Source: a virus
DNA length: 64,000 bases
IMG/VR virus record: IMGVR_UViG_3300017956_006678
Coordinates: 10,588-74,587 of that record
Reading direction: 5' to 3' (one strand)
Position 1 is the first letter of the stretch. Every line of letters begins with the position of its first letter. The notes beneath the pieces are model-generated. The model was not told the origin of the DNA. It did not search any database and worked only from the letters and a program-made list of their open reading frames with translations. The position numbers were made by a program, and so were the translations under genes. Of the stretch, positions 4,087-41,329 are shown in pieces.

Positions 4087-4137
4087 TTTATTAATGATTG
4101 TTGAGCAGTATTATTATCTCAAAAAGAGGTGATAATG
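4087..4137 (+). promoter_or_regulatory. Putative promoter (TTTATT-N16-TATTAT) overlapping an SD/start-codon-sequestering hairpin
   Basis: ATTATTATCTC-aaaaa-GAGGTGATAAT (4110-4136) forms an 11-bp stem with 2 G-U pairs covering the SD and the start of the ATG. Confidence 0.5.
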
Positions 4138-6048
4138 TTTAACAAAAATATATTTGATACTAAACAAGACAATAATCAATTAATTTTAAATTCTGATATT
4201 GTTGTAGTTTCTGACTTATACGCTGATGAATATCTTGGAGGTGCTGAATTAACTTCTGAGGTATTCATCAATTCTTTAATTGATGCAGGTTATAAAGTTT
4301 GTAAAATTAAAAGCAATGAATTGGATATGAAAAATATTGAAACAGGAGAAATGAAAAGTTGGATATTTTTTAATTACTCTGCAATCAATATGAATTTAAT
4401 ACCTACAATTGTAGCAAATGTGAATTATTCAATTGTAGAATACGATTATAAATTTTGTCAATATAGATCAACAGAAAAACATAAAGAAGTAGAAAATAAT
4501 GATTGTGATTGTCATGAAAAACCATTAGGTAAATTAATATCTGCATTTATGTTTGGAGCAAAAAATTTAATGTGGATGTCAGAAGGGCAAAGAGACTTTT
4601 ACATTCAACGCTTTCCTTTTCTCAAAAGTAAAGATAACTACATAATAAGCTCAGCGTTTACAGATAAAACATTTAAAAATTTAAGTGAAAATAGAAAAAA
4701 TAAAAAAAGAAATGACAAAGCACTGATAATACAGTCTAATTCGTGGATTAAAGGCGTAGAAGATTCTATAGAATATTGTAAATCAAAAAATATTAAATAC
4801 GATCTAATCGGTAATGTTTCACATTCTGAAATAATAAAGGCGATGAGCGAATATTCTCATTTTGTTTTTATGCCTAAAGGTAAAGACACATGTCCTAGAA
4901 TCTTAATAGAAGCAAAATTATCAGGAATGCATATTCATACCAATAATAATTGTCAACACACATCAGAAAAATGGTGGAGTTATAATCTAGAAGAAATAGA
5001 ATCATATCTTAAAAATTCTAAAAAAAGATTCTTAAATGCTATAGATCATCAAATTAAAAAAATAGAAACAATTAGCGGTTACACAACAACAAAAGATTGT
5101 ATATCACAAGAATATCCATACATCCAAGCAATTAAATCAATGTTAAATTTTTGTGATCAAGTAGTTGTTGTTGATGGAGGTTCTACAGATGGGACGTGGG
5201 AGTCACTGGTTGAACTTTCTAAAAAAGATGATAGAATTATCATTGAACAAAAGAAAAGGGACTGGTCACATCCACGTTTTGCCGTATTTGATGGTTTGCA
5301 AAAGGCTTATGCAAGAAGTTTATGTACTAGTGATTGGTGCTGGCAAATGGATTCAGATGAAATCGTTCATGAGGAAGATTATGAAAAAATTAAACAATTG
5401 ATTAAGCGTATTCCTAAATCGATGCATTTACTGGCATTACCTGTAATAGAATATTGGGGTGGGTCTGAAAAAGTAAGAATTGATGTCAATCCTTGGAAAT
5501 GGAGATTGAGTAGAAATCATAAACATATAACACACGGTATACCTAAACAGCTTAGAGCTGAGGATGAAAATGGAGATCTTTACGCTTTACAGGGAACAGA
5601 TGGTTGTGATTATATTGATGCTAATTCATATGAAATAATACCTTGTATGAATTTTTATGATCAAAATATTCATAATTTAAGGATACAAGCATTATCAGGT
5701 AATGAAGACGCAGTTGAAGCTTATGAAAATTGGTTTAATAATTTAGTAGAAAATTTACCTGGCGTTCATCATTATAGCTGGATGGATTTAGAAAGAAAAA
5801 TTAAAACATATAAGAATTATTGGTCTAAGCATTGGCAAAGTATGTATAATATATCTCAAGAAGATACGCCTGAAAACAATATGTTTTTTAATAAGAAATG
5901 GGAAGATGTTACAGATGAAGAAATAAAAGATCTTGCAAAAAAATTAAAAGATAAAATGGGAGGATGGATATTTCATAATCGCGTTGATTTTGAAAAACCT
6001 ACACCTCATGTTTATATTGAAAGAGGTGAACCTGAGGTGATGAAATAA
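4135..6048 (+). CDS. Two-domain glycosyltransferase (N-terminal GT-B/GT4-like plus C-terminal GT2)
   Basis: GGAELT and DTCPRILIEAKLSG (GT4-like); VVVVDGGSTDGT and QMDSDE (GT2); SD GAGGTG before ATG4135. Confidence 0.85.
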   Translation: MFNKNIFDTKQDNNQLILNSDIVVVSDLYADEYLGGAELTSEVFINSLIDAGYKVCKIKSNELDMKNIETGEMKSWIFFNYSAINMNLIPTIVANVNYSIVEYDYKFCQYRSTEKHKEVENNDCDCHEKPLGKLISAFMFGAKNLMWMSEGQRDFYIQRFPFLKSKDNYIISSAFTDKTFKNLSENRKNKKRNDKALIIQSNSWIKGVEDSIEYCKSKNIKYDLIGNVSHSEIIKAMSEYSHFVFMPKGKDTCPRILIEAKLSGMHIHTNNNCQHTSEKWWSYNLEEIESYLKNSKKRFLNAIDHQIKKIETISGYTTTKDCISQEYPYIQAIKSMLNFCDQVVVVDGGSTDGTWESLVELSKKDDRIIIEQKKRDWSHPRFAVFDGLQKAYARSLCTSDWCWQMDSDEIVHEEDYEKIKQLIKRIPKSMHLLALPVIEYWGGSEKVRIDVNPWKWRLSRNHKHITHGIPKQLRAEDENGDLYALQGTDGCDYIDANSYEIIPCMNFYDQNIHNLRIQALSGNEDAVEAYENWFNNLVENLPGVHHYSWMDLERKIKTYKNYWSKHWQSMYNISQEDTPENNMFFNKKWEDVTDEEIKDLAKKLKDKMGGWIFHNRVDFEKPTPHVYIERGEPEVMK

Positions 6049-6788
6049 TGGAAGAAACCAGATTTGTATTTTTAATACCTGCATATAATTGTGAAAAAGA
6101 AATTAAACAAACATTAATGTCTGTGTTTGCACAATCTTATCAAAATTGGAGAGTAATTCTTATTGATGATGTGTCTACAGATAATACATTACAATTCTCA
6201 AAAAATTTGGTCGAATCGCTTTGTTGTAGAGAAAAATTTATATTTGTTAGAAGAGAAGAAAAATATGGAGAAGTGAGAAATACAGTTGAAGAAATAGAAT
6301 ATATCGATAATGATGAAGTTGTTGTTAGGCTAGATGCTGGAGATTGGTTGACAGAAAATGACACTTTGTATTATTTAGATAAGATATATAGTGAACATAA
6401 TCCTGCTGTTTGTTGGACTGCACAAAGATGGGCTTATACAAACTATGGAATATCAAAACAAATGAAACTACAACCAAATCAGAGCGTCTATCAGCATCCC
6501 TGGGTATCTAGTCATTTAAAAACTTTTAGAGCTTCTGCACTTAAAAAGGTGAATCCTAAAAATTTTTATGACGACGATGGAAATTGGATTATGATTGCAT
6601 GTGATCAGGCAGTTTTCTTGCCAATGATGCATTTAGCTATAAAAGAAAAATTACCTCTTGTATTTCTTCCAATCGTGTGTTACCATTATAATATTGATCT
6701 AGAAAGGCCAGAACTTTTTACTGAAGATCGATCGATAAAACAAAAGCAAAGTGCTGAATGGATAAGAGAGAGGGGATATGTTGAGTGA
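6048..6788 (+). CDS. Glycosyltransferase family 2
   Basis: LIPAYNCE, SVFAQSY, ILIDDVSTDNT, RLDAGDW. Confidence 0.92.
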   Translation: MEETRFVFLIPAYNCEKEIKQTLMSVFAQSYQNWRVILIDDVSTDNTLQFSKNLVESLCCREKFIFVRREEKYGEVRNTVEEIEYIDNDEVVVRLDAGDWLTENDTLYYLDKIYSEHNPAVCWTAQRWAYTNYGISKQMKLQPNQSVYQHPWVSSHLKTFRASALKKVNPKNFYDDDGNWIMIACDQAVFLPMMHLAIKEKLPLVFLPIVCYHYNIDLERPELFTEDRSIKQKQSAEWIRERGYVE

Positions 6789-7146
6789 AACAGGTAAACA
6801 TATAAGTGAATGTGAGAAAGTAGATAAACCTTGGGGTTACGAGGTAATTTGGGCAAAAACAAAAGATTATGTTGCAAAAATGATGAGTATTAGCCCAAAC
6901 CAAAGAATGAGTTTGCAATATCATAACAAAAAAGAAGAAACACTATATGTAATGTCAGGTGTTTTAATATTGTGGGAAGGTGAAGAGGAAAATGGCTTTA
7001 AGCATTTACCTCCAGGATCTGTGTATCACGTCAATCCTAAACAAATACATAGGTTTGGTGCTGGCTCGAGCCCAGTTATGCTAATTGAAGTTAGTACAAA
7101 TCACCTTGATGATGTTGTTAGAATTAAGGATGATTACGATAGATGA
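6778..7146 (+). CDS. Cupin protein, mannose-6-phosphate isomerase type II C-terminal-like
   Basis: KPWGYE, SLQYHNKKEET, IHRF, EVST. Confidence 0.8.
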   Translation: MLSETGKHISECEKVDKPWGYEVIWAKTKDYVAKMMSISPNQRMSLQYHNKKEETLYVMSGVLILWEGEEENGFKHLPPGSVYHVNPKQIHRFGAGSSPVMLIEVSTNHLDDVVRIKDDYDR

Positions 7147-8054
7147 AAGTATTTACACATAATTTTAATCCGAGTTCAAATAGCGGACCTAATAAATTTA
7201 CTAGAACTTTATTTAATCAATTAATTAAAGATAATAAAGTTATATTAAGCAGCCAAGAAGAAGCTGACGTTGAATTCTGTTTAATACAGCAACAGCTACA
7301 TAAGGTTAAACCTATGGTTCTTCGTTTAGATGGAATCTGGTTTAATTCTGAACAAGATTATAATAGACAAAATGCACCTATTGTTTTTTCATATCAGAAT
7401 GCAGACGCTGTAGTTTTCCAATCAAATTTTAATAAGAAATTAACAGAAAGTTGGTTTGGTGCACACAAAAATTCTTATGTGATCCACAATGCCGCAGATT
7501 TAAATTTAATTAAAGCAGCTAATTTAAATTTCTGGGATAATAAGTTTGGCAAAGATACAGAAGTGTGGTCATGTGCATCTTCTTGGCGACCACATAAAAG
7601 ATTAAATGAGAATATTAGATACTTTTTAGAATTTGCACCAAAAGATGCAATTTTTGCTATAGCAGGTGCACTTACAATGGACGATGCTAAAAAAATACCA
7701 AAGAATGAGAGGATATTTCTTATGGGAGACTTAGACTACATGAGTTTACTTTCACTTTATAAGCGATCATCAACATTTGTTCATTTAGCTTATCTTGATC
7801 ATTGTCCTAATGTTGTTGTAGATGCGCAGGCATCAGGTTGTAAAATAGTTTGTAGTTCGACAGGAGGCACACAAGAAATTGTGCACGATGGAATTATAGT
7901 TCAGGAAGAATCTTGGGATTTTAAACCAACAAAATTATACGAACCGCCTAGTATGAAATGGAATTTAGTAGAAAAAAATAATAAAAAGACAAAGATTGAT
8001 TCAATAGAGACGTGTTCAAAAATCTATTTTAAAATAATGAAGGGGTTGATTTGA
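7143..8054 (+). CDS. Glycosyltransferase, GT4-like
   Basis: SGPNKF, LRLDG, VFQSNF, DHCPNVVVDAQASG. Confidence 0.88.
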   Translation: MKVFTHNFNPSSNSGPNKFTRTLFNQLIKDNKVILSSQEEADVEFCLIQQQLHKVKPMVLRLDGIWFNSEQDYNRQNAPIVFSYQNADAVVFQSNFNKKLTESWFGAHKNSYVIHNAADLNLIKAANLNFWDNKFGKDTEVWSCASSWRPHKRLNENIRYFLEFAPKDAIFAIAGALTMDDAKKIPKNERIFLMGDLDYMSLLSLYKRSSTFVHLAYLDHCPNVVVDAQASGCKIVCSSTGGTQEIVHDGIIVQEESWDFKPTKLYEPPSMKWNLVEKNNKKTKIDSIETCSKIYFKIMKGLI

Positions 8055-8983
8055 AAATATTTTGTCATGTACCTAGAGAAAATTGGATTGTAGACAGAAT
8101 GGGTAATGAATTTTTACAACATTCTTCGCATGATGTTTCTTTAGATAGAATAGAAGAAGATACGGAATTAATATGGTTATTTGCTTCGTGGTGTTGGAAT
8201 CAAATACCAATTGAAATACTTGCTAGAAAAAAAGTTGTGTGTACAGTTCATCATGAAGTACCTGAAAAATTTGATCTAAAAAGAAAACAAAACTTTTTAA
8301 TAAGAGACAAATTAGTCAATTATTATCACACCTATACGAAAGAAACTAAAGATTTGATAGAATCTTTATCATCAAAACCGGTTAAAATTATTCCTCATTG
8401 GGTAAATAATAAAATATGGATTAAAGAAGATAAGCATAAATGTAGAGAAATATTAAACTTACCTAAAGATAAATTTCTAATAGGCAGCTTTCAAAGAGAT
8501 ACAGAAGGATCTGATCTTAAGACTCCTAAATTAGAAAAAGGACCAGACATATTTGTTGAAAAAATTAAAGATATATGTCGTTTTAGAAAAGATGTACATG
8601 TTGTTCTGAGTGGCTGGAGAAGACAATACGTGATAAATAGATTAAATAATGAAGGTATTAAATTTACATATATTGAATTACCTGATCAGCAAACAATTAA
8701 TAAATTGTATAATTCACTTGATTTGTATATTGTAAGTTCTAGATGCGAAGGAGGACCTCAGTCAGTATTCGAATGTGCACAATTAAAAATACCTGTAATA
8801 TCAACAAAAGTAGGACAGTCATTTTTTCTTCATGAAAATTGTATTTATAATCATGATCAAAAAATAAATAATGAAATAATAAATTTATCTTCTGCATCAA
8901 CTATGTATAATTTCAATAATATTAAAGATCTTTCTATTGATAATTGTATTGATCTTTACGATAATTTTTTGAGAGAGGTTTGA
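8051..8983 (+). CDS. Glycosyltransferase, GT4-like
   Basis: EKGPD, LDLYIVSSRCEGGPQSVFEC, PVISTKVG; TTG start overlapping the upstream TGA. Confidence 0.88.
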   Translation: MKIFCHVPRENWIVDRMGNEFLQHSSHDVSLDRIEEDTELIWLFASWCWNQIPIEILARKKVVCTVHHEVPEKFDLKRKQNFLIRDKLVNYYHTYTKETKDLIESLSSKPVKIIPHWVNNKIWIKEDKHKCREILNLPKDKFLIGSFQRDTEGSDLKTPKLEKGPDIFVEKIKDICRFRKDVHVVLSGWRRQYVINRLNNEGIKFTYIELPDQQTINKLYNSLDLYIVSSRCEGGPQSVFECAQLKIPVISTKVGQSFFLHENCIYNHDQKINNEIINLSSASTMYNFNNIKDLSIDNCIDLYDNFLREV

Positions 8984-8985
8984 AC

Positions 8986-9693
8986 ATGAAAAAAATAATG
9001 ATTAAAGAAAAGTTAAAAAACATGGACGTTGAATTAGAAGACGTTGTCATGGGTGACTTTGATATTATTGGTGAATATACAGCAAAAAAGAGTAGAACAA
9101 GAGACAAAGATCAGTATAGAAAAGCAGGTTGTTTTTTTAGACCTAACTATGAAAGAGGTATACTAATGTATTATCTTGTTAGAAAAAAAGAAATTGAGTC
9201 TGTATTAGAAATAGGTTTTGGAAGAGGATACTCTGTTTTTTGCATGGCAAAGGCAATGTGTGATCATGGTATCGATGGCAAAATAACAACAGTTGATCCT
9301 AATTTAGATGAAAACTTTTTAAATAATTTAGCAAAAATATTTCCAAAAGAATGGTTTGATAAAATAGAATTTGTCAAAAGTACTTCAGACACATATTTTT
9401 CTGAAAATAAAGAAAAAGAATTTGATTTTATTTATATAGACGGCGATCATAGATACGAAGCTGTTAAAAAAGATTGGGAAAACTCTAAAGACAAGTTTAA
9501 AAAAGCACTTTTGTTTGATGACTATCACATGCCTTCAAAAAGACAAAAAGATATTGAATGTTCAAAAGTAATTGACGATATTACAGAATTTGAAAAAGAA
9601 CTAATAATAATGGATAGAAGAATATTTTTTGATGATAGAAGAATAGCTGATGAAGATATTGATTATGGACAAGTCCTCATAGAAAAGGAATGA
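8986..9693 (+). CDS. Class I SAM-dependent methyltransferase (Methyltransf_24-like)
   Basis: VLEIGFGRGYS, FDFIYIDGDHRYEAV, LFDDY; GAGG SD. Confidence 0.88.
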   Translation: MKKIMIKEKLKNMDVELEDVVMGDFDIIGEYTAKKSRTRDKDQYRKAGCFFRPNYERGILMYYLVRKKEIESVLEIGFGRGYSVFCMAKAMCDHGIDGKITTVDPNLDENFLNNLAKIFPKEWFDKIEFVKSTSDTYFSENKEKEFDFIYIDGDHRYEAVKKDWENSKDKFKKALLFDDYHMPSKRQKDIECSKVIDDITEFEKELIIMDRRIFFDDRRIADEDIDYGQVLIEKE

Positions 9694-9699
9694 CATGTC

Positions 9700-10395
9700 A
9701 TGTATACAAATTTTTATAAAAAAGGCATAGTTGATATTGATTTTCATAATGAAAAAATAGATTTAATATTAAAAGATATATTAGATCTCAAAATAAAAAA
9801 TAATTATTTTCTTAAAACTAAATATCAAAAAACTTATGATTTGAGACCTGATGTATATACTTATGATCCTTGTTTTTTGAACGTTCTTAAAGAAAATAAC
9901 ATTAAAGAATTAATAAGGAAGTATACTTTAAGAAATCTAACACTATCACATGTGCAAGTAAGAGTTGTAGAAGATGAAAATAGCTACATGAACTGGCATA
10001 GGGATACATACTATAACCAACGGGGAGACCTGGTAGGACAAGCACCTTCAGGTATAAAAATAATATATTATCCCAAGTTCAATGAGAATGAAAAAGAATT
10101 TGGAAGACTTGCTTATTTAGAAGGATCAAATAGAATACTTTTTCCAACAAATGCATACGATAATCAACTTTTTGGAATACTCAAACAAAATATAGTTAAA
10201 GCTAGATCTGGCAAAGCTATATTATTTGACACTGCAGGACTTCATGCAGTTATTCCAGAAAATAAAGGTGAAAAGTCTATAAGGTTAATTTATAGCTTTC
10301 TTGAGAAAGAGCAAGTAAATGCAATATCTACAGATAAAAAAAATATACATCAAAAAACTTCCTTAGAATATGAAAAATGGATGCAAAATGTTTAA
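9700..10395 (+). CDS. 2OG-Fe(II) dioxygenase, PhyH-like
   Basis: WHRD (HxD), GSN, GKAILFDTAGLHA, terminal R. Confidence 0.75.
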   Translation: MYTNFYKKGIVDIDFHNEKIDLILKDILDLKIKNNYFLKTKYQKTYDLRPDVYTYDPCFLNVLKENNIKELIRKYTLRNLTLSHVQVRVVEDENSYMNWHRDTYYNQRGDLVGQAPSGIKIIYYPKFNENEKEFGRLAYLEGSNRILFPTNAYDNQLFGILKQNIVKARSGKAILFDTAGLHAVIPENKGEKSIRLIYSFLEKEQVNAISTDKKNIHQKTSLEYEKWMQNV

Positions 10396-11326
10396 AGCTT
10401 ATTATTGCAAAGAAAGATTTAAATTTATTCATAATGATTTATTAGGAACTAATTTAATAAAAGAATATTCAAACAAATTTTTAATACCCAAAACAGGATG
10501 TTTTTATTCTGATCATTTAAATTTTTACATTGATACTTCTGATGGTGTCAATGATGATTTAGAGATATATGAGTATTGTGGTAGAATTAAAAGAGTAGTC
10601 CAAGACTGTAAAGGGAAACCATTTCTTTTTTTTAAGTCTGCTTATTCTAAAAAATGGTCAAAAAATATAGAAAAAATAGCAGAAGAAAATAATGGAAAAA
10701 TCATACCTTTTTTTAAATGGTCTTTTAATAATAAATTCTATAGTGACTTGTACCAAAAGCGTGAATTGTTTTTAGAAAAATATGAGAACGTTAAAAAAGA
10801 ATATGACATCGGAATATTTTTTGATTCTAAAAAATACAGATACCCCTTACCTAGTGAAACAGATGAATTTATATCTTGGAGTGATCATGAAAAATTTGGA
10901 TTAGCAGGTAAAAGTAGAAATATGGGATATCAGAATATTAATTCTAGAAAAAATATTATTGATAAACTTAATAACTCAAAATTTAATGTATTACACAGTT
11001 GGTCATCTTATAAAGATTACATCGATCAAAGTTTTAAATGTAAGATAATAATTAATCCACCCGGCATTGGAGAATACACTTCTAGAATGGTTGATCAAAC
11101 ATACCTGGGTAATTGCATAGTTTTAAGAAAGAATTCATACGATAATGGTTTAAGCTGGAAAAAACATATTCCTGAAGTTGACTTCATCAGCTCAGATTGG
11201 GAGAATACAATAGAAAATATTATTTCAAAATATAAGCATCATGGTAAAAATTGTAGAGAATATTATGAAAATTTCTGGACACCAAATGCAATCGTTAACT
11301 ACTTAATAGGAAAAATAAATGATTGA
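10388..11326 (+). CDS. Putative glycosyltransferase (GT-B C-terminal, exostosin/Glyco_trans_1_2-like)
   Basis: YDIGIFF, KCKIIINPPGIGEYTSR; cluster context. Confidence 0.55.
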   Translation: MFKAYYCKERFKFIHNDLLGTNLIKEYSNKFLIPKTGCFYSDHLNFYIDTSDGVNDDLEIYEYCGRIKRVVQDCKGKPFLFFKSAYSKKWSKNIEKIAEENNGKIIPFFKWSFNNKFYSDLYQKRELFLEKYENVKKEYDIGIFFDSKKYRYPLPSETDEFISWSDHEKFGLAGKSRNMGYQNINSRKNIIDKLNNSKFNVLHSWSSYKDYIDQSFKCKIIINPPGIGEYTSRMVDQTYLGNCIVLRKNSYDNGLSWKKHIPEVDFISSDWENTIENIISKYKHHGKNCREYYENFWTPNAIVNYLIGKIND

Positions 11327-13893: not shown

Positions 13894-13897
13894 CGAC

Positions 13898-15285: not shown

Positions 15286-15286
15286 A

Positions 15287-16063: not shown

Positions 16064-16068
16064 TTAAA

Positions 16069-17109: not shown

Positions 17110-17389
17110 TATAGATGAAACTATATGCAATTATGAAAATGTTGAGAGAAAGTATAAAAATGCTAAACCGGTTTATGAAAATATTAAAAAAATTAACAAT
17201 CTGTATAATGCTGGCAATAATATAATATACTGGACAGCAAGAGGCACAGTAACAAAAATAGATTACTATGAATTAACAAAATCACAACTAAAAAATTGGG
17301 GATGCAAGTATCATGATCTAATTGTGGGAGAAAAACCACACTATGATCTTCTAATATGTGATAAATCTAAGAGAATTGAGGAAATATGA
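17093..17389 (+). CDS. Minimal capless HAD-family phosphatase (capsule biosynthesis type)
   Basis: YVDIDETIC (motif I), YWTARG (II), EKP..DLLICDK (III/IV). Confidence 0.85.
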   Translation: MIIYVDIDETICNYENVERKYKNAKPVYENIKKINNLYNAGNNIIYWTARGTVTKIDYYELTKSQLKNWGCKYHDLIVGEKPHYDLLICDKSKRIEEI

Positions 17390-18213: not shown

Positions 18214-18214
18214 G

Positions 18215-22244: not shown

Positions 22245-23065
22245 TTAATTACGAAAAATATTTTAAAAAATGTCAAGAAATTTTTACCGGTAACAAACCT
22301 AGTAGAAACAGTTCTCTTTTTATTGATAATCTAGGTTGTGAAATATTCAATCCGGAAAAGAAAAATAAAATTTTTAAATTTTATAAAAGTTATAATGATG
22401 ACGTACATGAAGCTTTTATTTATTCAGACAATAAAATTAAAAATCGTGTCGATCTTTTTGATACTAATCATAAAAACATAATCAAGGTAGATAATTGGAA
22501 AGATTGTCCTGCAATTTATAGATTAGGTAATTTTTGTGCACGTGTAGCTGAAGAAAATATATATGGTAGTAATGCAATTGTAGAGTCTATTTTAATTTAT
22601 AAGAATTTACTTGGTGGTCCAAAAAGATCTTCGTGGTTATGGCACTATGACGATAACGTACACCAGCAAATTAAAATTATGATTTATTTAAATGACGTCA
22701 CTGATAAGACAGGTGCCATGCAAGTATTAAAAAAAGAGGATGGAACTTCTACAAAATTTTTATCGTCAAAAATAAGCCCAATTAAAACTGACAAGTCAAA
22801 ACAGCTATTTGGTACTAGTCGCTTACCTGAACAATTTATTGAACAACAAGAAATAATAACAATTTCAGGAAAAAAAGGAACTTTTATTGTTTTTGATCCT
22901 AATACTCCTCATAGAGCTACTTTAGCTTCTAATAAAGAGACACGTATGTGTGTAGTTTTTAATTTAAGACCTTATCATAAAAATAAAAATAAAAAAATTG
23001 ATCGATCAACAAAAACTTGGAGTACACTAGGTAATGTAAAAAAATTTAGCACCAGTATGGATTAA
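22241..23065 (+). CDS. 2OG-Fe(II) dioxygenase, PhyH-like
   Basis: WHYD, IYLNDV...GA, GTFIVFDPNTPHRA, R. Confidence 0.82.
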   Translation: MINYEKYFKKCQEIFTGNKPSRNSSLFIDNLGCEIFNPEKKNKIFKFYKSYNDDVHEAFIYSDNKIKNRVDLFDTNHKNIIKVDNWKDCPAIYRLGNFCARVAEENIYGSNAIVESILIYKNLLGGPKRSSWLWHYDDNVHQQIKIMIYLNDVTDKTGAMQVLKKEDGTSTKFLSSKISPIKTDKSKQLFGTSRLPEQFIEQQEIITISGKKGTFIVFDPNTPHRATLASNKETRMCVVFNLRPYHKNKNKKIDRSTKTWSTLGNVKKFSTSMD

Positions 23066-23066
23066 G

Positions 23067-23798
23067 ATGTTAATATACAATACACACAACATGACAAAAC
23101 TAACAAATAATGTTAATAAAAAAAATATTCTTATTTTAGGATCAGGACCTTCAGCAAGAGAGGTTGATTGGGAAAGTATAGATTTTGATACAGTAATTAC
23201 AACAAGTTTTTTTTACTTGAATGAAAAAGTTTTAGAAAAATCAATATGTCACATAAGCTTATCAAAATTAGTAGATCTAGAAAATCCAAAACTTTTAGAT
23301 TATTTGAGAAAAAATAAAAATTGTACTATTTCTTTTGAACCTAAAATAAGTAAACATTTAAAAAATAAAAAAGGTCAAAAAGAAGAAGAAATAATACGAT
23401 TTGTAAATAGTTCTCATAAATTTTATACCACAAAAGTTTTTAATAAATTTTATAAAGAATTCTCAGATAGAATATTTTTTTATAGAGCAGAAGGAGGTTT
23501 AGAAGGATTGGCAGGAAGAATATTTTGGCCGACTATTTTAGGTCATCCTAATAAAATATATTTTTGCGGTTTAGATGGTGTTTCAAAAAATACAAATTTA
23601 GACCCAAGAAACTATTTTCGAAAACACAAGGGAACAACTGACAAACATTACTCATATGAAGAATATAAAAAATCTTTTGAAAATTATGCACAAAGAATGT
23701 ATAATGCTGCTAAAGATAAAAAAATTAAAGTAATTAACTTAGGTAAAGGAAAGAATTATAATTTAATGACAAACATTAGTATAATCTATGAGACATAA
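23067..23798 (+). CDS. CST-I/GT42 (alpha-2,3-sialyltransferase)- or Maf/DUF115-like nonulosonate transferase
   Basis: ILILGSGPSAREVDW, FFY, KIYFCGLDG, NYF, VINL. Confidence 0.65.
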   Translation: MLIYNTHNMTKLTNNVNKKNILILGSGPSAREVDWESIDFDTVITTSFFYLNEKVLEKSICHISLSKLVDLENPKLLDYLRKNKNCTISFEPKISKHLKNKKGQKEEEIIRFVNSSHKFYTTKVFNKFYKEFSDRIFFYRAEGGLEGLAGRIFWPTILGHPNKIYFCGLDGVSKNTNLDPRNYFRKHKGTTDKHYSYEEYKKSFENYAQRMYNAAKDKKIKVINLGKGKNYNLMTNISIIYET

Positions 23799-23816
23799 GA
23801 TAGAGGGAGGATATTA

Positions 23817-24638
23817 ATGAAAATTAAAAAAATAATTTTAGGAAAAGGTAAAGTATCATCTGTGATTACTGATAAAGAGAGTGTTGTTTTAGATAAAAAA
23901 CAATGTAATATATTAAATATTAATGATTTAAATAACGTCATTAATAAATACAAACCTGAAATAATAATAAACTGTGCTGCAAAAACTAATTTAGAATATT
24001 GTCAAGAAAATAAAATAGATTGCTTTGAAAGTAATACTCGTGGTGTTTTAAATTTAATTGAAATATGCTCTTTAAAAAAAATAAAACTAGTTCATATTAG
24101 TAGTGGTTGTTTATTTGATGGTAATGAGTTTATCGCAAATGAAAAGACACACGTTTCACCTAAGGTTTGGTATACATGGACAAAAGCATGGGCAGATCAA
24201 ATAATAGAAAATTATGGTTACGAAAATTATCTAATATTGAGACCTAGACAACTCATATCCTGCAAACCACATCCAACAAATATGTTAACAAAGTTTTCTA
24301 AAATGAAAAAAATACCTGCAATCAAAGAACCGAATTCAATTACATGTCTAGAAGACTTTAAAGAAATCATTAATCATTTAATAAAAATAGATGCTGTTGG
24401 AATTTACAATTGTGCTAATGAAGGGGTTGTAACGCCTTATGATATTGCAATAGGAGTAAAAGAAAAAATTAATCCATCGCTAGTCGTTGTAAAAGAAACA
24501 TATGAAAATCTATTAAAACAGCTACCTAACAGAAGAGTCAATACAATACTTAGCATTACAAAACTTAAAAATTCTGGGTATACACCTAGATCAGCCAAAG
24601 ATGCACTTAACTGGTGTTTAGAAAACTATGGAAAATAA
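23817..24638 (+). CDS. RmlD-like SDR of the bifunctional 3,5-epimerase/4-reductase (NRS/ER) type
   Basis: INCAA, HISSGCLF, YTWTK (YxxxK), LRPRQLIS...PTNMLTK, PNSIT, GIYNCANEGVV. Confidence 0.8.
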   Translation: MKIKKIILGKGKVSSVITDKESVVLDKKQCNILNINDLNNVINKYKPEIIINCAAKTNLEYCQENKIDCFESNTRGVLNLIEICSLKKIKLVHISSGCLFDGNEFIANEKTHVSPKVWYTWTKAWADQIIENYGYENYLILRPRQLISCKPHPTNMLTKFSKMKKIPAIKEPNSITCLEDFKEIINHLIKIDAVGIYNCANEGVVTPYDIAIGVKEKINPSLVVVKETYENLLKQLPNRRVNTILSITKLKNSGYTPRSAKDALNWCLENYGK

Positions 24639-25578
24639 TTGTTATAACATATTACTAACAGGATGTGCAGGCTTTATAGGCAGTCATGCAGCAGAGTGTT
24701 TTGTTAAAGATAAAAGATATTTAGTCGCAGGGGTTGATAAAATGACCTATGCATCGGATCAAAAAAATATTAAAATGCTATCAAATTATGATAATTTTAA
24801 TTTTTACAAAGGTGATATATGCGACAAAATGTTAATTGAAAATATTGTAAAAAAATATAATATTAGATGGATAATAAATTTTGCTGCTGAAACACACGTT
24901 GATAATTCAATTGAAGATGCTACTGATTTTTTAAAATCAAACTTTTTAGGTGTACATAATCTTCTTGAAATTTGTAAAAATAAAAAGATAAAACTTTTTC
25001 AAATTTCAACAGATGAGGTTTATGGAGAAGCTAAAGAATATTCTTACAAAGAAAATAATATGTTAGATCCAAGAAATCCTTATTCAGCTAGCAAAGCAGC
25101 TGCAGAACACTTAATTAATTCTTATGCAAATACATATCAAGTTGAATATATCATAGCTAGACCGTCTAATAATTACGGCCCTAGGCAACATAAAGAAAAG
25201 TTCATACCTAAAATACTTATGAATTTAAAGAATCGTAAAAAAGTACCTGTGTATGGATCAGGATTACAAATTAGAGAATGGACATATGTCAAAGATACAG
25301 TTAACGCTATAAAATTTATATTAGAACATTCTGATTTAAATGAATGTTATAATATTTCATCTAATATTGAAATGAAAAACTTGGAAGTCTTAGATTTAAT
25401 ATGTGAAAAAACAAATAATGACGCGTCGAAAGTTATTAAATTTGTTAAAGATAGAAAAGGGCATGACAATCGATATTCAATTAATAGCGATAAATTGAAT
25501 AAGTTAGGTTATAAAAATTATTTAGACTTTAAGTCAGGTTTAAATAATACAATTAAATATTATTTGGAGAAAAAATGA
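24628..25578 (+). CDS. rmlB: dTDP/UDP-glucose 4,6-dehydratase
   Basis: TGCAGFIG, DKMTYA, FAAETHVDNSI, STDEVYG, PYSASKA, NNYGPRQ. Confidence 0.95.
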   Translation: MENNCYNILLTGCAGFIGSHAAECFVKDKRYLVAGVDKMTYASDQKNIKMLSNYDNFNFYKGDICDKMLIENIVKKYNIRWIINFAAETHVDNSIEDATDFLKSNFLGVHNLLEICKNKKIKLFQISTDEVYGEAKEYSYKENNMLDPRNPYSASKAAAEHLINSYANTYQVEYIIARPSNNYGPRQHKEKFIPKILMNLKNRKKVPVYGSGLQIREWTYVKDTVNAIKFILEHSDLNECYNISSNIEMKNLEVLDLICEKTNNDASKVIKFVKDRKGHDNRYSINSDKLNKLGYKNYLDFKSGLNNTIKYYLEKK

Positions 25579-26417
25579 ATATTGGAATTATAGGGCAAGG
25601 ATTTGTGGGTTCTGCAATAAGAGAAGGTTTAAAAAACTTTTATAAAATAAGAACATACGATATCGATTCTTCTAAATGTAATAGCACACATAGAAAAGTT
25701 TGCTTAGAATCAGATATTATTTTTATGTGTTTGCCTACACCAATGCGTAAAAATGGATCTTGCGATACAAGAATATTAGAATCAGCAATTCAAAAAGTTG
25801 ACATAACTGTCGACCAACGTGATAGCCGACCAATTATAGTTATAAAGTCAACAGTTCCACCAGGTACTACAGAAAGACTAAGTGACATCGTGAACCACTG
25901 TGATGTCTGTTTTAGCCCAGAATTTTTAACAGAAGCAAATTCTTTTGATGACTTTAAAAATCAAAGTAGAATTATTATTGGAGGACCTAGACCTGCAACA
26001 GGTAAAGTAAAGCAAATGTTTAGAAAAGCTTTTCCAACAATACCGATCGTAAAAACAGGTACAAAGACAGCAGAAATGACAAAATACTTCATAAACTGTT
26101 TTCTTGCGTCAAAAGTAACTTTTGCAAATCAAATGTATCAAATTTGTGCGAATAATAATATAGACTACGACAAGGTATGTGAATATGCTTTGTATGATCA
26201 AAGAATTGGAAAGAGTCACTTAGCTGTACCCGGTCCAGATGGAGACTTAGGTTTTGGTGGACATTGTTTCCCTAAAGATCTAGCTGCAATGATTAATTTT
26301 GGCGTGAATAATGAGGGAGACACTGATTTTCTCAAAGCAATTGAAGATTTTAATAATAAATGTAGAAGATTTAAAGACTGGGAGCAAATGAAAGGAAGAG
26401 CTGTAAGTGAAGATTAG
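25575..26417 (+). CDS. ugd: UDP-glucose/GDP-mannose 6-dehydrogenase, short form without the C-terminal domain
   Basis: GIIGQGFVG, CLPTP, KSTVPPGTT, SPEFL, GFGGHCFPKD. Confidence 0.9.
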   Translation: MNIGIIGQGFVGSAIREGLKNFYKIRTYDIDSSKCNSTHRKVCLESDIIFMCLPTPMRKNGSCDTRILESAIQKVDITVDQRDSRPIIVIKSTVPPGTTERLSDIVNHCDVCFSPEFLTEANSFDDFKNQSRIIIGGPRPATGKVKQMFRKAFPTIPIVKTGTKTAEMTKYFINCFLASKVTFANQMYQICANNNIDYDKVCEYALYDQRIGKSHLAVPGPDGDLGFGGHCFPKDLAAMINFGVNNEGDTDFLKAIEDFNNKCRRFKDWEQMKGRAVSED

Positions 26418-26465
26418 TGTAAATAAATAATAAGCTATGTATAATCATATTAGGAGATTAATATG
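26418..26465 (+). promoter_or_regulatory. Putative promoter TGTAAA-N16-TATAAT plus a hairpin over the SD and ATG
   Basis: TATAAT at 26440-26445; CATATTA-ggagat-TAATATG is a perfect 7-bp stem (26446-26465). Confidence 0.5.
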
Positions 26466-27308
26466 AATGAAAACAATGCCCAATTCCCAACAGGTAAACC
26501 ACATATTTCATTTTCAGAAATCAAACAATGGAAAGAATGTGGATATCGTCACAAACTAGTCTATATAGATAAAATTGACACTTTTGAAGATTCACCTTAT
26601 CTTCATTTTGGAACAGCAGTTCACGAAGGATGCGAGAGCTTATTAGAGACAAAGAAAATCGACCGTGATAAAATACTAGGGGTTATGAAAGAAAGTTGGC
26701 AGAAAGCTGGATTTGAGAACCCAGCGTGGTATTCTAAGCAACCTTCTTGGTATAAGCATGAACCTGTTGAAACATGGGAAACTTGGGCTAATAATATGTG
26801 GGATGAAGTTATAACTTTTCTAGATAAAGAATTGACAGGTTGGGAATGTTTTAAAGCAGAAGAAGAATTGTATGAGCCTATTGAGAATCTTAAAAAACCT
26901 TTATCCTTTAAAGGATTTATTGATGGTGTTCTTAAAGTACCTAAAAAGAGAGGTCAGGGTCATGAATACTGGATTATTGACTGGAAAACAGCAGGTCCAG
27001 GTGGTTGGAGAAGAGATAAAAAACAAGATTTAGGTATGACAGCACAATTAATTCTTTATAAACATTTTTGGGCAAAGAAACACAACATTCCACTTAAAGA
27101 TGTTAGATGTGCTTTTATATTATTGAAGCGGGGTGCTAAACAAGGAAAAGTATGTGATATTGTTAAAGTTTCTGTAGGACCTAAAACATATATCAAAGGA
27201 ATTAAACTTATGAGAAATATGATAAAGACAGTTAGAAAAGGAATGTTTCTTAAAAATAGAAATAGTTGTAAATTTTGTCCTTATGAAAATACAGAACATT
27301 GCACATAA
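26463..27308 (+). CDS. PD-(D/E)XK nuclease, Cas4/AddB-like with 4-Cys cluster
   Basis: ISFS...EC, FGTAVH, GFIDG, IIDWKT, QLILY, CKFCPY....HC. Confidence 0.9.
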   Translation: MNENNAQFPTGKPHISFSEIKQWKECGYRHKLVYIDKIDTFEDSPYLHFGTAVHEGCESLLETKKIDRDKILGVMKESWQKAGFENPAWYSKQPSWYKHEPVETWETWANNMWDEVITFLDKELTGWECFKAEEELYEPIENLKKPLSFKGFIDGVLKVPKKRGQGHEYWIIDWKTAGPGGWRRDKKQDLGMTAQLILYKHFWAKKHNIPLKDVRCAFILLKRGAKQGKVCDIVKVSVGPKTYIKGIKLMRNMIKTVRKGMFLKNRNSCKFCPYENTEHCT

Positions 27309-27311
27309 ATG

Positions 27312-27362
27312 TTTACTTTAATGGTCTGTAAGATAAAATTATCTCTAATTAAAGAGGTAATT
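27312..27362 (+). promoter_or_regulatory. Putative promoter TTTACT-N16-TAAAAT plus an SD-sequestering hairpin
   Basis: AATTATCTC-taattaaa-GAGGTAATT (27337-27362), a 9-bp stem with one G-U pair; near copy of the element at 4110. Confidence 0.5.
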
Positions 27363-27363
27363 G

Positions 27364-28617
27364 ATGGAAGAAAATAAAAAATTTAAAGTTGTTATTCTTG
27401 CAGATCACGCACTTTCTACTAGCGGCGTAGGTACTCAAACTAGACATTTGGTTGAAGGCCTTTTGAAAAAAGGTTGTTGGTCGTTTAGACAATTTGGGGC
27501 TGCTTTAAAACATGCAGACTATAGAACTGTTGTTGTTAATGAAGATTTTGTCATTAAACCTATTGATGGATTTGGTAATCCTGAACTTATAAGAGTTACA
27601 TTAGCAACTGAAAAACCTGATCTTATTTTTATTTTTACTGATCCTAGATTTTTTGTGTGGCTATTTGAGATGGAAGATGAAATACATCAGGTTTGTCCGA
27701 TTGTTTGGTGGCATGTTTGGGATAATTATCCGTACCCTAAGTTTAATACGCCTTTTTATGAATCAACAGATCTAATTAATTGTCATTCACATATGACTTA
27801 CACTATGATTAAAGATAAGTTCCCAGCTAAAACAAATTTTATACCTCATGCTCTGCCAGAAAATATTTTTCACCCAATTACAAAAAATGAAAAAATTAAT
27901 TATAAAAATGAAATACTAGGAAACGAAAAGGCAGACTATTTCACAACAATTTGGGTAAATAGAAATGCTAAAAGAAAAAGACCTAGTGACGTTTTAGCAT
28001 CTTGGAAGATGTTTTTAGAAAAACTTAAAAAAGAAAAAGGACACCAAAAAGCAACCTTAATTATGCACACTGACCCATACGATCAAGAAGGTCCTAATTT
28101 AATAGCAGTATCTGAAAACTTAGGAATACAAGATACAGTTATATTCTCTAGAGAGAGGATAGATTTTGCAAAGATGAATATACTGTACAATATTTCTGAT
28201 TGCTGCATTAGTATGTCCTATGCTGAAGGTTTTGGACTGTCAACTCTAGAATCAATGATGACAGGGACACCTATTATTGCACCAAAAACTGGAGGATTAA
28301 CTAGACAAGTTGTTGATCATCGAGATGAAAGTCACAATGGTGTTGCTTTAGATATATCAATGAAAACCCTGGTAGGAAGTCAATCTGTACCTTATATTTA
28401 TGAAGACTATGCGTCATGTGAAGATGCATCAGAAGCACTTTATAAAATGTATAGTTTGTCTGCAAAAGAAAAAGAAAAATTATCAGAAAAAGTATTAGAA
28501 TATGCACACACCCAATTTGGAATGCAAAATACTATTGATAAGTGGCATGATTCAATGATTGATATAATCAAAAATTGGAAAAACAATTATCAAAGATTAG
28601 ATGTACAAGAAATATAA
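27364..28617 (+). CDS. Glycosyltransferase family 4
   Basis: SGVGTQ, VNRNAKRK, AEGFGLSTLESMMTGTPII. Confidence 0.93.
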   Translation: MEENKKFKVVILADHALSTSGVGTQTRHLVEGLLKKGCWSFRQFGAALKHADYRTVVVNEDFVIKPIDGFGNPELIRVTLATEKPDLIFIFTDPRFFVWLFEMEDEIHQVCPIVWWHVWDNYPYPKFNTPFYESTDLINCHSHMTYTMIKDKFPAKTNFIPHALPENIFHPITKNEKINYKNEILGNEKADYFTTIWVNRNAKRKRPSDVLASWKMFLEKLKKEKGHQKATLIMHTDPYDQEGPNLIAVSENLGIQDTVIFSRERIDFAKMNILYNISDCCISMSYAEGFGLSTLESMMTGTPIIAPKTGGLTRQVVDHRDESHNGVALDISMKTLVGSQSVPYIYEDYASCEDASEALYKMYSLSAKEKEKLSEKVLEYAHTQFGMQNTIDKWHDSMIDIIKNWKNNYQRLDVQEI

Positions 28618-28630
28618 TAAGAGGACAATA

Positions 28631-29803
28631 ATGAAAGTTTTACTTAGAGCACCTTTGCTTTCTTTATCAGGTTATGGAATACATTCTAGACAAATATTTG
28701 AATGGTTAGAAACAATTCCAGGAATAGAATTAACTGTTGAAATATTACAATGGGGAACAACAACTTGGTTAGTTAATGAGTCTACACAAAATGGTTTGAT
28801 TGGTAGAATTATGGAAAAATCAAGAGAGTTACAGACACCTTATGATGTTACATTTCAAGTTCAACTTCCTGATGAATGGGATACTAAATTAGGAAAAATC
28901 AACATAGGTGTTTCAGCTTATGTTGAAACAAATAAATGTTCACAAAAATGGTTAGATGCGACAAACAAAATGGATCACATTATAGTGCCTTCTAATTTTA
29001 CTAAAAATGTTATTTTAAAGTCAGGGAATGTAAAGCCTGAAATCTCAGTTGTTCCAGAGTGGTTTAATCAAGAAATAGAAAATAATAAAAAGTCTAAACC
29101 TAAGTTACATTTTAACAAAAAGTTTAATTTCTTAATGATTGGAACAGTTACTTCTAGAAATCCGGATGATGATAGAAAAAATATGCTGTATGGAATTAAA
29201 TGGTTTTGTGAAACATTTAAAGACAATAAAAACGTAGGTCTTATTTTAAAAACATCATTTGGTAAAGGTACAATGATTGATAGACATCTAACACTTAATA
29301 CTGTTAAGGGTGTTTTAAAAGAAGTAAGGAAAGGAGATTACCCTAAAGTAACTGTTGTACATGGTAATATGACACAGAAAGAAATTGCTGACTTATATAA
29401 ACATTCAAGAGTAAAATGTTTAATATCACCTACAAGAGGTGAAGGATACGGATTACCCCTTGTAGAGGCTGCAGCTTCAGGTTTGCCGGTAATGGCAACC
29501 AACTGGTCCGGTCATTTAGATTTTTTAGAAGATAAATTTATTAAAATAGACTATGACTTAGTAAACATAAATAAGTCAAGAATTGATAATAGAATATTTG
29601 TTGAAGGCACCAAGTGGGCAATGCCTAATGAATTACAATTTAAAAGAAAACTTAAAGAAGTATACGAAAATATTGAAAAATTCGAAAACAATTCAAAAGT
29701 TTTAAAGAAAAATGTTTTAAAAAATTTCTCTAAGAAAAGTATTATAAAGATATATGATGAAGTATTTGAGAAAATAAAAATTAAAAATTCAATAGAAGGA
29801 TAA
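28631..29803 (+). CDS. Glycosyltransferase family 4
   Basis: SGYGIHSR, IIVPSNF, RKN, TRGEGYGLPLVEAAASGLPVMATNWSG. Confidence 0.93.
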   Translation: MKVLLRAPLLSLSGYGIHSRQIFEWLETIPGIELTVEILQWGTTTWLVNESTQNGLIGRIMEKSRELQTPYDVTFQVQLPDEWDTKLGKINIGVSAYVETNKCSQKWLDATNKMDHIIVPSNFTKNVILKSGNVKPEISVVPEWFNQEIENNKKSKPKLHFNKKFNFLMIGTVTSRNPDDDRKNMLYGIKWFCETFKDNKNVGLILKTSFGKGTMIDRHLTLNTVKGVLKEVRKGDYPKVTVVHGNMTQKEIADLYKHSRVKCLISPTRGEGYGLPLVEAAASGLPVMATNWSGHLDFLEDKFIKIDYDLVNINKSRIDNRIFVEGTKWAMPNELQFKRKLKEVYENIEKFENNSKVLKKNVLKNFSKKSIIKIYDEVFEKIKIKNSIEG

Positions 29804-34375: not shown

Positions 34376-34406
34376 TTAATTTTAAATCTAAGGAAAGGGA
34401 AATAAA

Positions 34407-37774: not shown

Positions 37775-37785
37775 GGATAAAAGTA

Positions 37786-41322: not shown

Positions 41323-41329
41323 GTAAAAA

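Follow-up and report, generated by a model that had tools for sequence, protein, structure and literature searches.

A soluble glycan-synthesis island joined to a conserved glycosyltransferase pair in aquatic myophages: a candidate virion-glycosylation system

Introduction

What do lytic marine phages make with their large clusters of glycan genes, and to what is the product attached? Such clusters have been known since 2005 and the target has not been established for any of them. Here we take up the question for a stretch of 64,000 nucleotides (the window), bases 10588-74587 of the 74.6-kb IMG/VR viral contig IMGVR_UViG_3300017956_006678. Between positions 4129 and 29803 (about 26 kb) it carries 30 open reading frames (ORFs), all on the + strand, which an earlier note made from the sequence alone had described as an entirely soluble glycan-synthesis locus and a candidate virion-glycosylation system. 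We find that the locus joins a pair of glycosyltransferases (GTs) conserved across a phage lineage to an island of glycan genes that varies between relatives, and that proteins encoded just beyond the neighbouring baseplate genes are enriched in motifs of the type [ST][GA]S. From the comparisons below, the best explanation is that the locus is the hypervariable part of a glycosylation system characteristic of a large group of myophages from marine and fresh waters, relatives of the Flavobacterium phage immuto and the Microcystis phage Mel-JY01. We put at about even the chance that it encodes a phage-owned cytoplasmic protein-glycosylation system decorating virion (tail or baseplate-distal) proteins, in which the GT pair primes the glycan and the island diversifies it. 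The lineage makes the target question testable, with a fixed two-enzyme core, cultured members, a candidate acceptor motif and a DNA alternative that is already weakened.

The window has a guanine-plus-cytosine (GC) content of about 29%. Near-identical DNA occurs in 20 DNA runs from 13 studies, comprising salt-marsh, marine, seawater and viral-fraction metagenomes, so the phage is real and recurrent in coastal waters; megablast with 25 kb of the window gave no DNA-level match among GenBank phages. The available part of the phage's own genome is called G000, and G001 is a complete, terminally repeated relative of 204 kb with a GC content of 45%. Together with immuto, Mel-JY01 and LR756508, G001 makes four complete relatives; with the partial G000 they form the five records searched below.

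Results

A 26-kb island of glycan genes

The 30 ORFs are tightly packed. By ORF coordinates, 20 of the 29 gene junctions overlap, only two gaps exceed 20 nucleotides (26418-26462 and 27309-27360), and no common motif was seen by eye in the few intergenic regions. The genes are listed here with the evidence for each (aa, amino acids; E, expectation value) and are named below by their first position.

4129-6048, +: 639-aa protein with a GT2 domain at residues 334-442 (PF00535, E 1e-10)
6048-6788, +: GT2 glycosyltransferase (PF00535, E 6.5e-19)
6778-7146, +: cupin, like the C-terminal part of mannose-6-phosphate isomerase (PF01050, E 5e-11)
7143-8983, +: two GT4 glycosyltransferases, 7143-8054 and 8051-8983 (PF00534 / PF13692)
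8980-9693, +: S-adenosylmethionine (SAM)-dependent (O-)methyltransferase (PF13578, E 2e-17; PF01596, E 1e-10)
9700-10395, +: 231-aa protein, no Pfam, PHROGs or PDB match
10370-11326, +: GT-B-fold glycosyltransferase of a family without a Pfam model (AlphaFold2 predicted local distance difference test, pLDDT, 93; Foldseek)
11319-11954, +: FkbM-type methyltransferase (PF05050, E 3e-13)
11951-13006, +: radical SAM/SPASM enzyme (PF04055, PF13186)
13006-13893, +: probable GT-B C-terminal domain protein, weak (PF00534, E 1.3e-4, below the Pfam cut-off)
13898-14467, +: methyltransferase (PF13489 / PF08241)
14464-15285, +: divergent GT2-like glycosyltransferase (PF00535 match in 10 of 32 aligned homologues, best E 3e-11)
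15278-16063, +: GT-A-fold glycosyltransferase of a family without a Pfam model (AlphaFold2 pLDDT 95; Foldseek; invariant DxD)
16069-17109, +: GT-B-fold protein, glycosyltransferase or 2-epimerase-like (ESM Atlas, template-modelling (TM) score 0.62-0.71 to GT4 clusters and 0.64 to Epimerase_2)
17093-17389, +: short HAD-like phosphatase (phrog_1238, E 2.5e-23)
17386-18213, +: NeuB-type nonulosonate synthase without a SAF domain (PF03102, E 8e-77)
18215-18898, +: cytidine monophosphate (CMP)-sugar (nonulosonate) cytidylyltransferase (PF02348, E 1e-16)
18831-19736, likely start near 18891, +: 2-oxoglutarate (2OG)-Fe(II) oxygenase-like protein (ESM Atlas, features 0.94, TM score 0.63-0.67 to 2OG-FeII_Oxy clusters)
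19733-20434, +: methyltransferase (PF13847 and others)
20431-21546, +: polysaccharide pyruvyl transferase (PF04230, E 2e-19)
21516-22244, +: methyltransferase (PF13489, E 7e-16)
22241-23065, +: PhyH / 2OG oxygenase (PF05721, E 1e-6)
23067-23798, +: GT42-like (Cst-type) nonulosonate transferase (24-homologue profile against C. jejuni Cst-I/Cst-II, E 9e-8 to 6e-7)
23817-24638, +: RmlD-like reductase of nucleoside diphosphate (NDP)-4-keto-sugars (PF04321, E 1e-23)
24628-25578, +: dTDP-glucose 4,6-dehydratase-like enzyme (TIGR01181, 360 bits, just under the equivalog cut-off of 365)
25575-26417, +: short NDP-sugar dehydrogenase of 280 aa without the C-terminal domain (PF03721 and PF00984 only; TIGR03026, 197 bits)
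26463-27308, +: PD-(D/E)XK nuclease, a backbone gene and not a glycan enzyme (PF12705, E 4e-20; PHROGs)
27361-28617, +: core glycosyltransferase GT4-A (PF00534, above cut-off)
28601-29803, +: core glycosyltransferase GT4-B (PF00534, above cut-off)

Twelve genes are of the glycosyltransferase type as counted by Pfam, homologue profiles and structure models, in agreement with the earlier note's figure of about 12. Nine encode tailoring enzymes (five methyltransferases, one radical SAM/SPASM enzyme, one pyruvyl transferase and two 2OG-type oxygenases), close to its estimate of ten. The nuclease, ORF 26463, leaves 29 glycan genes rather than 30. Gene content indicates three sugar routes: a four-gene CMP-nonulosonate route, a 6-deoxyhexose route and a uronate route. 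The rhamnose-type branch comes without RmlA and RmlC, neither of which was found in the island, and the uronate dehydrogenase is a short form without the C-terminal domain. Read from this gene content, the product would be methylated, pyruvylated and nonulosonate-capped. A role in sugar tailoring is presumed for the radical SAM/SPASM enzyme ORF 11951, whose NCBIfam matches are only generic (BlsE among them, at E 9e-16). Residues 1-330 of ORF 4129 have no PDB match by sequence.

No membrane or export partners

None of the 30 proteins reaches a mean of 1.6 in a Kyte-Doolittle scan with a 19-residue window, so no membrane segment is predicted in the island. The same scan was positive in ORF 29815 (one segment) and in the tape-measure-like ORF 32714 (several). 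Priming transferases of the types PF02397 (Bac_transf) and PF00953 (WecA/MraY) were absent from all five records, with controls positive in 10-12 of 14 genomes. Wzx (PF01943) and Wzy (PF04932) were absent from the same records, again with positive controls detected, ABC2_membrane itself not having been searched. In G001, one unassigned protein of 1,028 aa has about seven hydrophobic segments (at 530-884) and no other has more than three. By hydropathy and PHROGs, the locus holds no membrane GtrA or GtrC and no bactoprenol-linked GtrB of a gtrABC-type set; the sole GtrB-like signal is the match of the GT2 domain of ORF 4129 to phrog_841 (E 0.0045). The earlier description of a soluble, self-contained system, with no Wzx/Wzy, priming transferase or transmembrane segment in the island, is thus upheld, and no membrane export or polymerase partner appears elsewhere in the four complete relatives or in the available part of G000. 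Soluble transferases can act on host undecaprenyl-linked intermediates, and the lack of membrane genes is therefore compatible with host-surface remodelling as well.

Some of the relatives that carry NeuB also encode, within a few kilobases of the glycan genes, unassigned proteins of about 260 aa and about 395 aa that each contain three to four or more hydrophobic segments. They include L061:6367-7146, L039:6914-7699, L081:7322-8110 and others, as well as L059:3289-4479, and have no Pfam match.

A GT4 pair conserved across the lineage

A search of IMG/VR gave at least 598 relatives of GT4-A, and in metagenomes the family comprises more than 5,600 protein clusters. In the loci of the best 80 of these IMG/VR matches, the nuclease gene precedes the GT4 pair in 75 and GT4-B is present in 79. 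The block of nuclease, GT4-A and GT4-B also occurs in the Flavobacterium phage immuto, the Microcystis phage Mel-JY01 and LR756508. In the 31 closest loci, where GT4-A is at least 50% identical, the gene order of the window is kept over up to ten genes, as far as the contigs reach: nuclease, GT4-A, GT4-B, 29815, 30101, 30918, gp25-like, gp6-like, 36248 and 37786. In about 30 of the closest contigs, the gp25/gp6 baseplate genes are found three to four genes downstream of the GT4 pair. The genes that flank the island in the window are:

2770-4083, +: PhoH-like, upstream backbone marker (phrog_2765, E 1e-102), upstream of the module in relatives too
29815-30156, +: 113-aa protein with one N-terminal membrane helix (Kyte-Doolittle 2.61 over residues 1-31)
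30101-30898, +: 265-aa conserved protein, weakly sigma-70-like (Sigma70_r2, E 0.02, in 3 of 14 homologues)
33866-36248, +: baseplate wedge genes, gp25-like 33866-34375 and gp6-like 34407-36248 (phrog_43, phrog_6, phrog_219)
36248-45742, +: post-baseplate proteins rich in [ST][GA]S, candidate acceptors by motif enrichment and position, 36248-37774, 37786-41322 and 42428-45742

A homologue of ORF 29815 directly follows GT4-B in 28 of the 80 loci, and one of ORF 30101 is present in 34. Besides ORF 29815, no membrane protein is tied to the core module. The earlier note had placed the locus beside late sigma and baseplate genes; the baseplate genes are confirmed and the sigma label is weak. For a late-sigma (gp55-type) identity of ORF 30101, the marginal Sigma70_r2 signal listed above is accompanied by no PHROG or PDB match.

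Upstream of the nuclease gene the content varies from contig to contig (dehydratases, 4129-like GT2 genes, NeuB with HAD, a dehydrogenase), and NeuB lies within 10 kb in only 11 of the 80 loci. In a second sub-clade, which includes G001, the variable genes lie instead downstream of GT4-B; they comprise one to three NeuB paralogues, Cst-like genes, oxygenases and methyl- and pyruvyl-transferases, and this region ends at a HAD gene and the homologues of 30101 and 30918. The same nuclease-GT4-GT4 core is thus accompanied by differing islands, which indicates that the two transferases are lineage core genes and the rest a swappable cassette. On this comparison of loci, the island is the hypervariable part of a lineage-wide module.

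The two cultured phages illustrate this organization. In immuto (vB_FspM_immuto, host Flavobacterium sp. LMO8; MW353176, 47964-59944) and Mel-JY01 (PP395634, 81375-89690), the same backbone nuclease, GT4-A and GT4-B are followed by variable soluble glycan genes; GT4-A is 33-34% identical to that of the window and the baseplate wedge protein 31-34% (34% for immuto). Their islands differ from the present one in being smaller, about 8-11 kb, and in carrying aminotransferases, an acetyltransferase and GT2/GT4 genes. NeuB has no match in either record, and no function for these glycan genes is proposed in the literature searched.

Both core enzymes look active from their sequences, since the catalytic EX7E motif is kept: E289 and E297 are invariant in GT4-A, and in GT4-B E281 is invariant and E289 is kept in at least 90%. 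The best PDB match of the GT4-A profile is B736L of chlorovirus NY-2A (3oy2), over the full length and with E 7e-21, ahead of all cellular GT4 structures; 3oy2 is also the best match of GT4-B (E 5e-9). In GT-B enzymes the N-terminal domain binds the acceptor. This domain of GT4-A has 24 residues that are invariant in 25 viral homologues, and all 24 are kept both in immuto and in Mel-JY01, whose hosts belong to the Bacteroidota (Flavobacterium) and the cyanobacteria (Microcystis). Such invariance across host phyla points to one conserved acceptor and makes a host-specific surface glycan unlikely; judged from these residues, a component of the phage or a molecule common to all cells is the more fitting candidate. 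In Mel-JY01, GT4-A is encoded by two ORFs (L087:8998-9570 and 9581-10489), split exactly between the N- and C-terminal GT-B domains with the invariant residues all kept in both halves; the enzyme may truly consist of two chains, or the split may stem from a frameshift or a sequencing error.

A motif enriched in proteins encoded after the baseplate wedge

The motif class [ST][GA]S was tested against composition-preserving shuffles, with these counts:

ORF 36248: 11 observed, 1.5 expected
ORF 37786: 11 observed, 2.4 expected
ORF 42428: 12 observed, 3.6 expected
G001 homologue of 36248: 12 observed, 1.9 expected
G001 protein of 4,753 aa: 40 observed, 11.3 expected
20 homologues of 36248: 155 observed, 30.3 expected
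gp6-like protein, 28 homologues (L182-L212): 11 observed, 34.2 expected
GT4-A, 80 homologues: 34 observed, 21.9 expected
Twelve T4 baseplate, fibre, sheath and portal proteins: 12 observed, 15.9 expected

The motif is at background in the island's 30 enzymes. In the homologues of 36248, which were chosen by homology, the excess has a z of at least 3.1 in 20 of 20, and tail, fibre and spike proteins of immuto show an excess too (z 3 to 4.6). The immuto homologue of ORF 36248 lies at 84135-85244. When all tripeptides are ranked without bias, SGS heads the list for the tail sets of both the window and G001, the latter set being partly motif-chosen and thus not fully independent. Typically, hydrophobic residues precede the motif and L, F or Y follows it. 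The gp6-like protein is about three-fold depleted in the motif, and the product of the next gene is five-fold enriched.

In the alignment of the 36248 family the motif occupies 32 columns, only five of which are common to half of the homologues. Motif density is thus conserved while many positions turn over, which is what a modification site would do; a repeated structural turn would give the same pattern. A virion role for 36248-type proteins is suggested only by the place of their genes, right behind those of the gp25-like and gp6-like proteins.

The nonulosonate route and other sugar donors

The locus holds a compact route from central metabolites to a CMP-nonulosonate. The synthase, NeuB (ORF 17386), scores below both the NeuB and the PseI equivalog cut-offs. 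It has 226 IMG/VR relatives, the best 80 of which are 67-80% identical. The HAD gene is present in 51 of 82 NeuB-anchored loci, and cupin homologues adjoin NeuB, HAD or cytidylyltransferase genes in relatives (e.g. L018-L020, L041, L056, L057, L073 and L075). No precursor gene of the NeuC, PseB/C or LegB/C type was found in the island by Pfam or NCBIfam. The joint occurrence of cupin, HAD and cytidylyltransferase genes with NeuB, without NeuC, Pse or Leg enzymes, suggests a 9-phosphate route from fructose-6-phosphate and phosphoenolpyruvate (PEP) to the CMP form of 2-keto-3-deoxynonulosonic acid (Kdn). The genes expected for CMP-Kdn are present together (synthase 17386, proposed phosphatase 17093, cytidylyltransferase 18215 and putative mannose-6-phosphate source 6778) and are clustered in relatives. 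From its gene set, the nonulosonate is probably Kdn; the modelled fold of ORF 16069 bears on this assignment, as that protein could be a 2-epimerase.

Among 185,579 species genomes, the nearest cellular NeuB proteins are those of Streptomyces, at 56-59% identity. The Streptomyces NeuB loci have no other island gene in common with the phage, and so say nothing on a donor cluster. The route resembles the Kdn pathways of Bacteroides thetaiotaomicron and Streptomyces in pairing a NeuB-type synthase that lacks the SAF domain with a HAD phosphatase encoded next to it and with a cytidylyltransferase; for B. thetaiotaomicron the likeness is one of known pathway enzymes and not of aligned sequences, and the Streptomyces loci differ in sharing no neighbouring gene with the phage island. 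The walls of Streptomyces carry a Kdn-galactose teichulosonic acid as their main decoration (PMC11481543), and SAF-less NeuB proteins are rare, that of S. scabiei being among them (PMC8208679).

NeuB of the window (17386-18213, GC 29%) is 77% identical to a G001 copy (L090, G001:C1:35571-36398, GC 45%), and the backbone proteins PhoH, GT4-A, GT4-B and gp6-like are only 30-42% identical between window and G001. NeuB is thus either under unusually strong constraint or exchanged among these phages. For the uronate route, the closest relative, L029, has two short paralogues of the dehydrogenase 25575 in tandem (12457-14200).

Transferases outside the core pair

Three glycosyltransferase families of the locus have no Pfam model (ORFs 10370, 14464 and 15278). 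The model of ORF 10370 (pLDDT 93) matches EXT1/2, chlorovirus B736L, GtfC and POGLUT in Foldseek. Its family is well conserved and counts 130 clusters, with 40-98% identity among 120 listed and many members from Tara and other marine samples, and includes one natural fusion to a cytidylyltransferase domain (P0097); ORF 10370 represents a candidate new family of CMP-sugar transferases. The model of ORF 15278 matches SpsA, a Leptospira GT, RmlT and SunS/ThuS at E of about 3e-6, and D71 and D73 of its DxD motif are invariant in the family. The family profile of ORF 23067 matches the Cst structures 2p2v, 2x63 and 1ro7 with E 9e-8 to 5e-7 over profile positions 51-201, the nucleotide-binding core. 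Genes of this type adjoin a cytidylyltransferase gene in many relatives, which suggests that ORF 23067 uses a CMP-nonulosonate donor.

Discussion

A proposed pathway and the points against it

We propose a working scheme in which the acceptor, the order of steps, the sugar identities and the expression timing are all inferred from the genes. The retaining-type GT4 enzymes 27361 and 28601 would put the first sugars on a lineage-constant acceptor. An acceptor that is the same throughout the lineage is most likely phage-encoded, and our tentative choice is Ser/Thr residues within SGS-type motifs, in the proteins whose genes directly follow those of the baseplate wedge. The ten further island transferases would then extend the chain with donors made on the spot. 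One of these would be a CMP-nonulosonate, probably CMP-Kdn: fructose-6-phosphate would be converted to mannose-6-phosphate (6778) and condensed with PEP (NeuB 17386), the nonulosonate-9-phosphate, proposed substrate of the HAD phosphatase 17093, would be dephosphorylated, and the product would be activated with CMP (18215). Its transfer would fall to the GT42-like 23067 and possibly to 10370. The other donors would be a 6-deoxyhexose (24628, 23817) and a uronate (25575), and methyl, pyruvyl and oxidative tailoring would complete the glycan. That the glycan is carried by virion proteins is suggested indirectly by the cross-phylum acceptor domain, the synteny with the baseplate and the SGS enrichment.

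Several points weigh against virion glycosylation. No glycoprotein has been observed. The G000 contig is about 21% complete by CheckV, so that the remaining genes of the phage itself are unseen, and the hydrophobic proteins found near the glycan genes of some NeuB-bearing relatives could, by their sequence, be membrane partners in that sub-clade. As to timing, the sigma signal of ORF 30101 is marginal, the 21 runs listed for the stretch include no RNA and give no expression timing, and the T4 late-promoter motif TATAAATA is not enriched (18 observed, 16.6 expected); at this background level it says nothing on when the genes are expressed. The SGS motif was first defined on this window, the motif-rich proteins, including the 36248 family, have no Pfam, PHROG or PDB match, the five shared alignment columns hold 43% of the motif instances, and SGS may be a structural element of an unfamiliar fold. 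The island of immuto lies about 17 kb from the baseplate genes, with small ORFs in between. Finally, most transferases of the cellular O-antigen loci, which use host lipid carriers, are soluble, as are those of the island.

Weighing the alternatives

The last point belongs to a reading in which the host envelope is remodelled. Phage transferases would act on host undecaprenyl-phosphate-linked intermediates, and the host flippase, polymerase or ligase would export an altered O-antigen, capsule or O-glycan; superinfection would then be blocked, or progeny kept off debris. Pyruvyl transferases, Cst-type sialyltransferases and FkbM methyltransferases are typical of surface-polysaccharide loci, the hypervariability of the island matches that of host surface glycans, and marine myophage glycan clusters have been read in this way since P-SSM2, with 24 genes (PMC1079782), and again for S-SCSM2R, with 13 glycosyltransferases (PMC12801897). 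We nevertheless hold it to be rather unlikely. No priming transferase, flippase or polymerase was found in the four complete relatives, and each exported step would therefore need host enzymes that tolerate a foreign, hypervariable glycan. The acceptor-side domain of GT4-A is invariant between Flavobacterium and Microcystis phages, which is unexpected for a host-specific acceptor, the solved structure nearest to GT4-A comes from a chlorovirus rather than from cellular lipopolysaccharide synthesis, and the SGS motif would be left unexplained. That invariance fits any universal molecule as well as a phage protein, and the acceptor might be another cytoplasmic one: a non-structural phage protein, a conserved host protein, or a lipid or small molecule such as a host defence or signalling compound to be neutralised, with the island diversifying the product. 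The PDB search that yielded 3oy2 also returned small-molecule and lipid transferases among solved GT4s (BshA, MshA, PimA-type and sucrose-phosphate synthase-like). This option seems unlikely to us. With a dozen transferases and nine tailoring enzymes the glycan should be long and elaborate, which is not usual when the product is a small molecule, and the option accounts neither for the enriched motif of the post-baseplate proteins nor for the synteny with baseplate genes.

DNA hypermodification, with the transferases building a glycan on a modified base to evade restriction, had been named in the earlier note as the main alternative; we consider it very improbable. The core GT4 pair always follows the PD-(D/E)XK nuclease at the end of the replication module, and both GT4 proteins touch the Pfam model 'GT4 in conflict systems' (E 1e-5 and 5e-8). 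These matches are weaker than those to generic GT4 models, and we discarded them as a functional clue. T-even phages glucosylate hydroxymethylcytosine, and their DNA carries a single glucose or gentiobiose; twelve transferases with nonulosonate, pyruvyl and methyl tailoring far exceed this case. Immuto does hypermodify its DNA, with a 7-deazaguanine, but liquid chromatography with ultraviolet and mass-spectrometric detection of the DNA of this phage, which has a homologous module, gave canonical dA, dC and dT, complete replacement of dG by fdPreQ1 and no report of a glycosylated nucleoside (PMC10516641). A thymidylate-synthase-like gene (PF00303) is absent from G000 (partial), G001 (complete) and Mel-JY01, and present only in immuto and LR756508. 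A Pfam search for tRNA-guanine transglycosylase (TGT) found nothing in immuto, which is published to encode DpdA3 (PMC10516641); the model thus misses a known case, its negative is uninformative, and searches of the lineage for 7-deazaguanine modification of DNA call for a dedicated DpdA profile.

Virion glycosylation may be stated in a more specific and general form: abundant, almost uncultured aquatic myophages would O-glycosylate their own tail and baseplate-distal proteins at SGS-type sites, primed by the GT4 pair and diversified by a swappable island that provides here a Kdn-like, methylated and pyruvylated cap. We offer this version tentatively, as possible though somewhat doubtful. If true, virions with hypervariable sialic-acid-like glycans would give phages an equivalent of O-antigen diversity, borne by the particle itself. 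They would also call for a fresh look at phage-host recognition, at how marine viruses are grazed and aggregate, at how antibodies and lectins recognise phages, and at how sugar genes classed as 'auxiliary metabolic' in viromes are read.

Comparison with known systems

In a full-text literature search we found no description of a lineage-wide nuclease-GT4-GT4 core with an invariant acceptor domain, of cassette-like island turnover, of a NeuB-type, probably Kdn, route with a Cst-like transferase in these phages, or of an SGS excess in tail proteins. For the 'moraphages', which are jumbo phages infecting Bacteroidota, a 2025 paper gives PhoH, gp6 and four glycosyltransferase groups as core, the last without analysis; we compare them with the window by description only.

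The giant viruses, with the capsid glycans of chloroviruses and the fibril polysaccharides of Mimivirus, likewise combine virus-encoded soluble transferases and nucleotide-sugar routes without membrane export genes. Methylated and pyruvylated sugars are known among these viral glycans. In contrast, the present system has a bacterial host, a tailed virion and a nonulosonate route with a Cst-like transferase. Chlorovirus B736L (3oy2), the best solved match to both GT4s, has no established function.

According to PMC12619734 and the work cited there, giant viruses and mycobacteriophages are established cases of virions glycosylated by soluble enzymes of the virus, and cytoplasmic phage glycosyltransferases were shown to decorate virion proteins of Che8-type mycobacteriophages (Freeman et al. 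2023). As summarised in that source, only a few transferases are at work there, on the C-termini of capsid and tail-tube subunits. The present locus, likened to them by description only, has 12 transferases with sugar pathways, and its candidate acceptors are tail and baseplate-distal proteins with internal SGS motifs.

The cyanophages P-SSM2, S-SCSM1 and S-SCSM2R likewise carry tens of soluble glycan genes in lytic marine myophages (PMC1079782, PMC12801897). S-SCSM2R has been called the marine phage with perhaps the most glycosyltransferases, 13 (PMC12801897); the window alone has 12. Those clusters belong to a different lineage and are read in the literature as host-surface modification or DNA protection; no lineage-wide core GT4 pair is described in these papers, and the nonulosonate there is of the Kdo type (KdsA/KdsB) and not of the NeuB type.

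Some bacterial systems work on a similar principle. GtfA/GtfB, acting on serine-rich repeat adhesins, and Maf/FlmG, acting on flagellins, are soluble systems that glycosylate Ser/Thr stepwise in the cytoplasm, on folded or nascent protein. GtfA/GtfB is also a tandem GT-B pair on Ser-rich motifs, and the flagellin systems use CMP-nonulosonates. No Maf-type domain was detected by Pfam, and S. pneumoniae GtfA (4pqg) matches the core GT4s only marginally (E 0.005 for GT4-A and 0.001 for GT4-B). GtfB is described as a non-catalytic partner; unlike GtfB, both phage GT4 proteins keep the catalytic EX7E motif.

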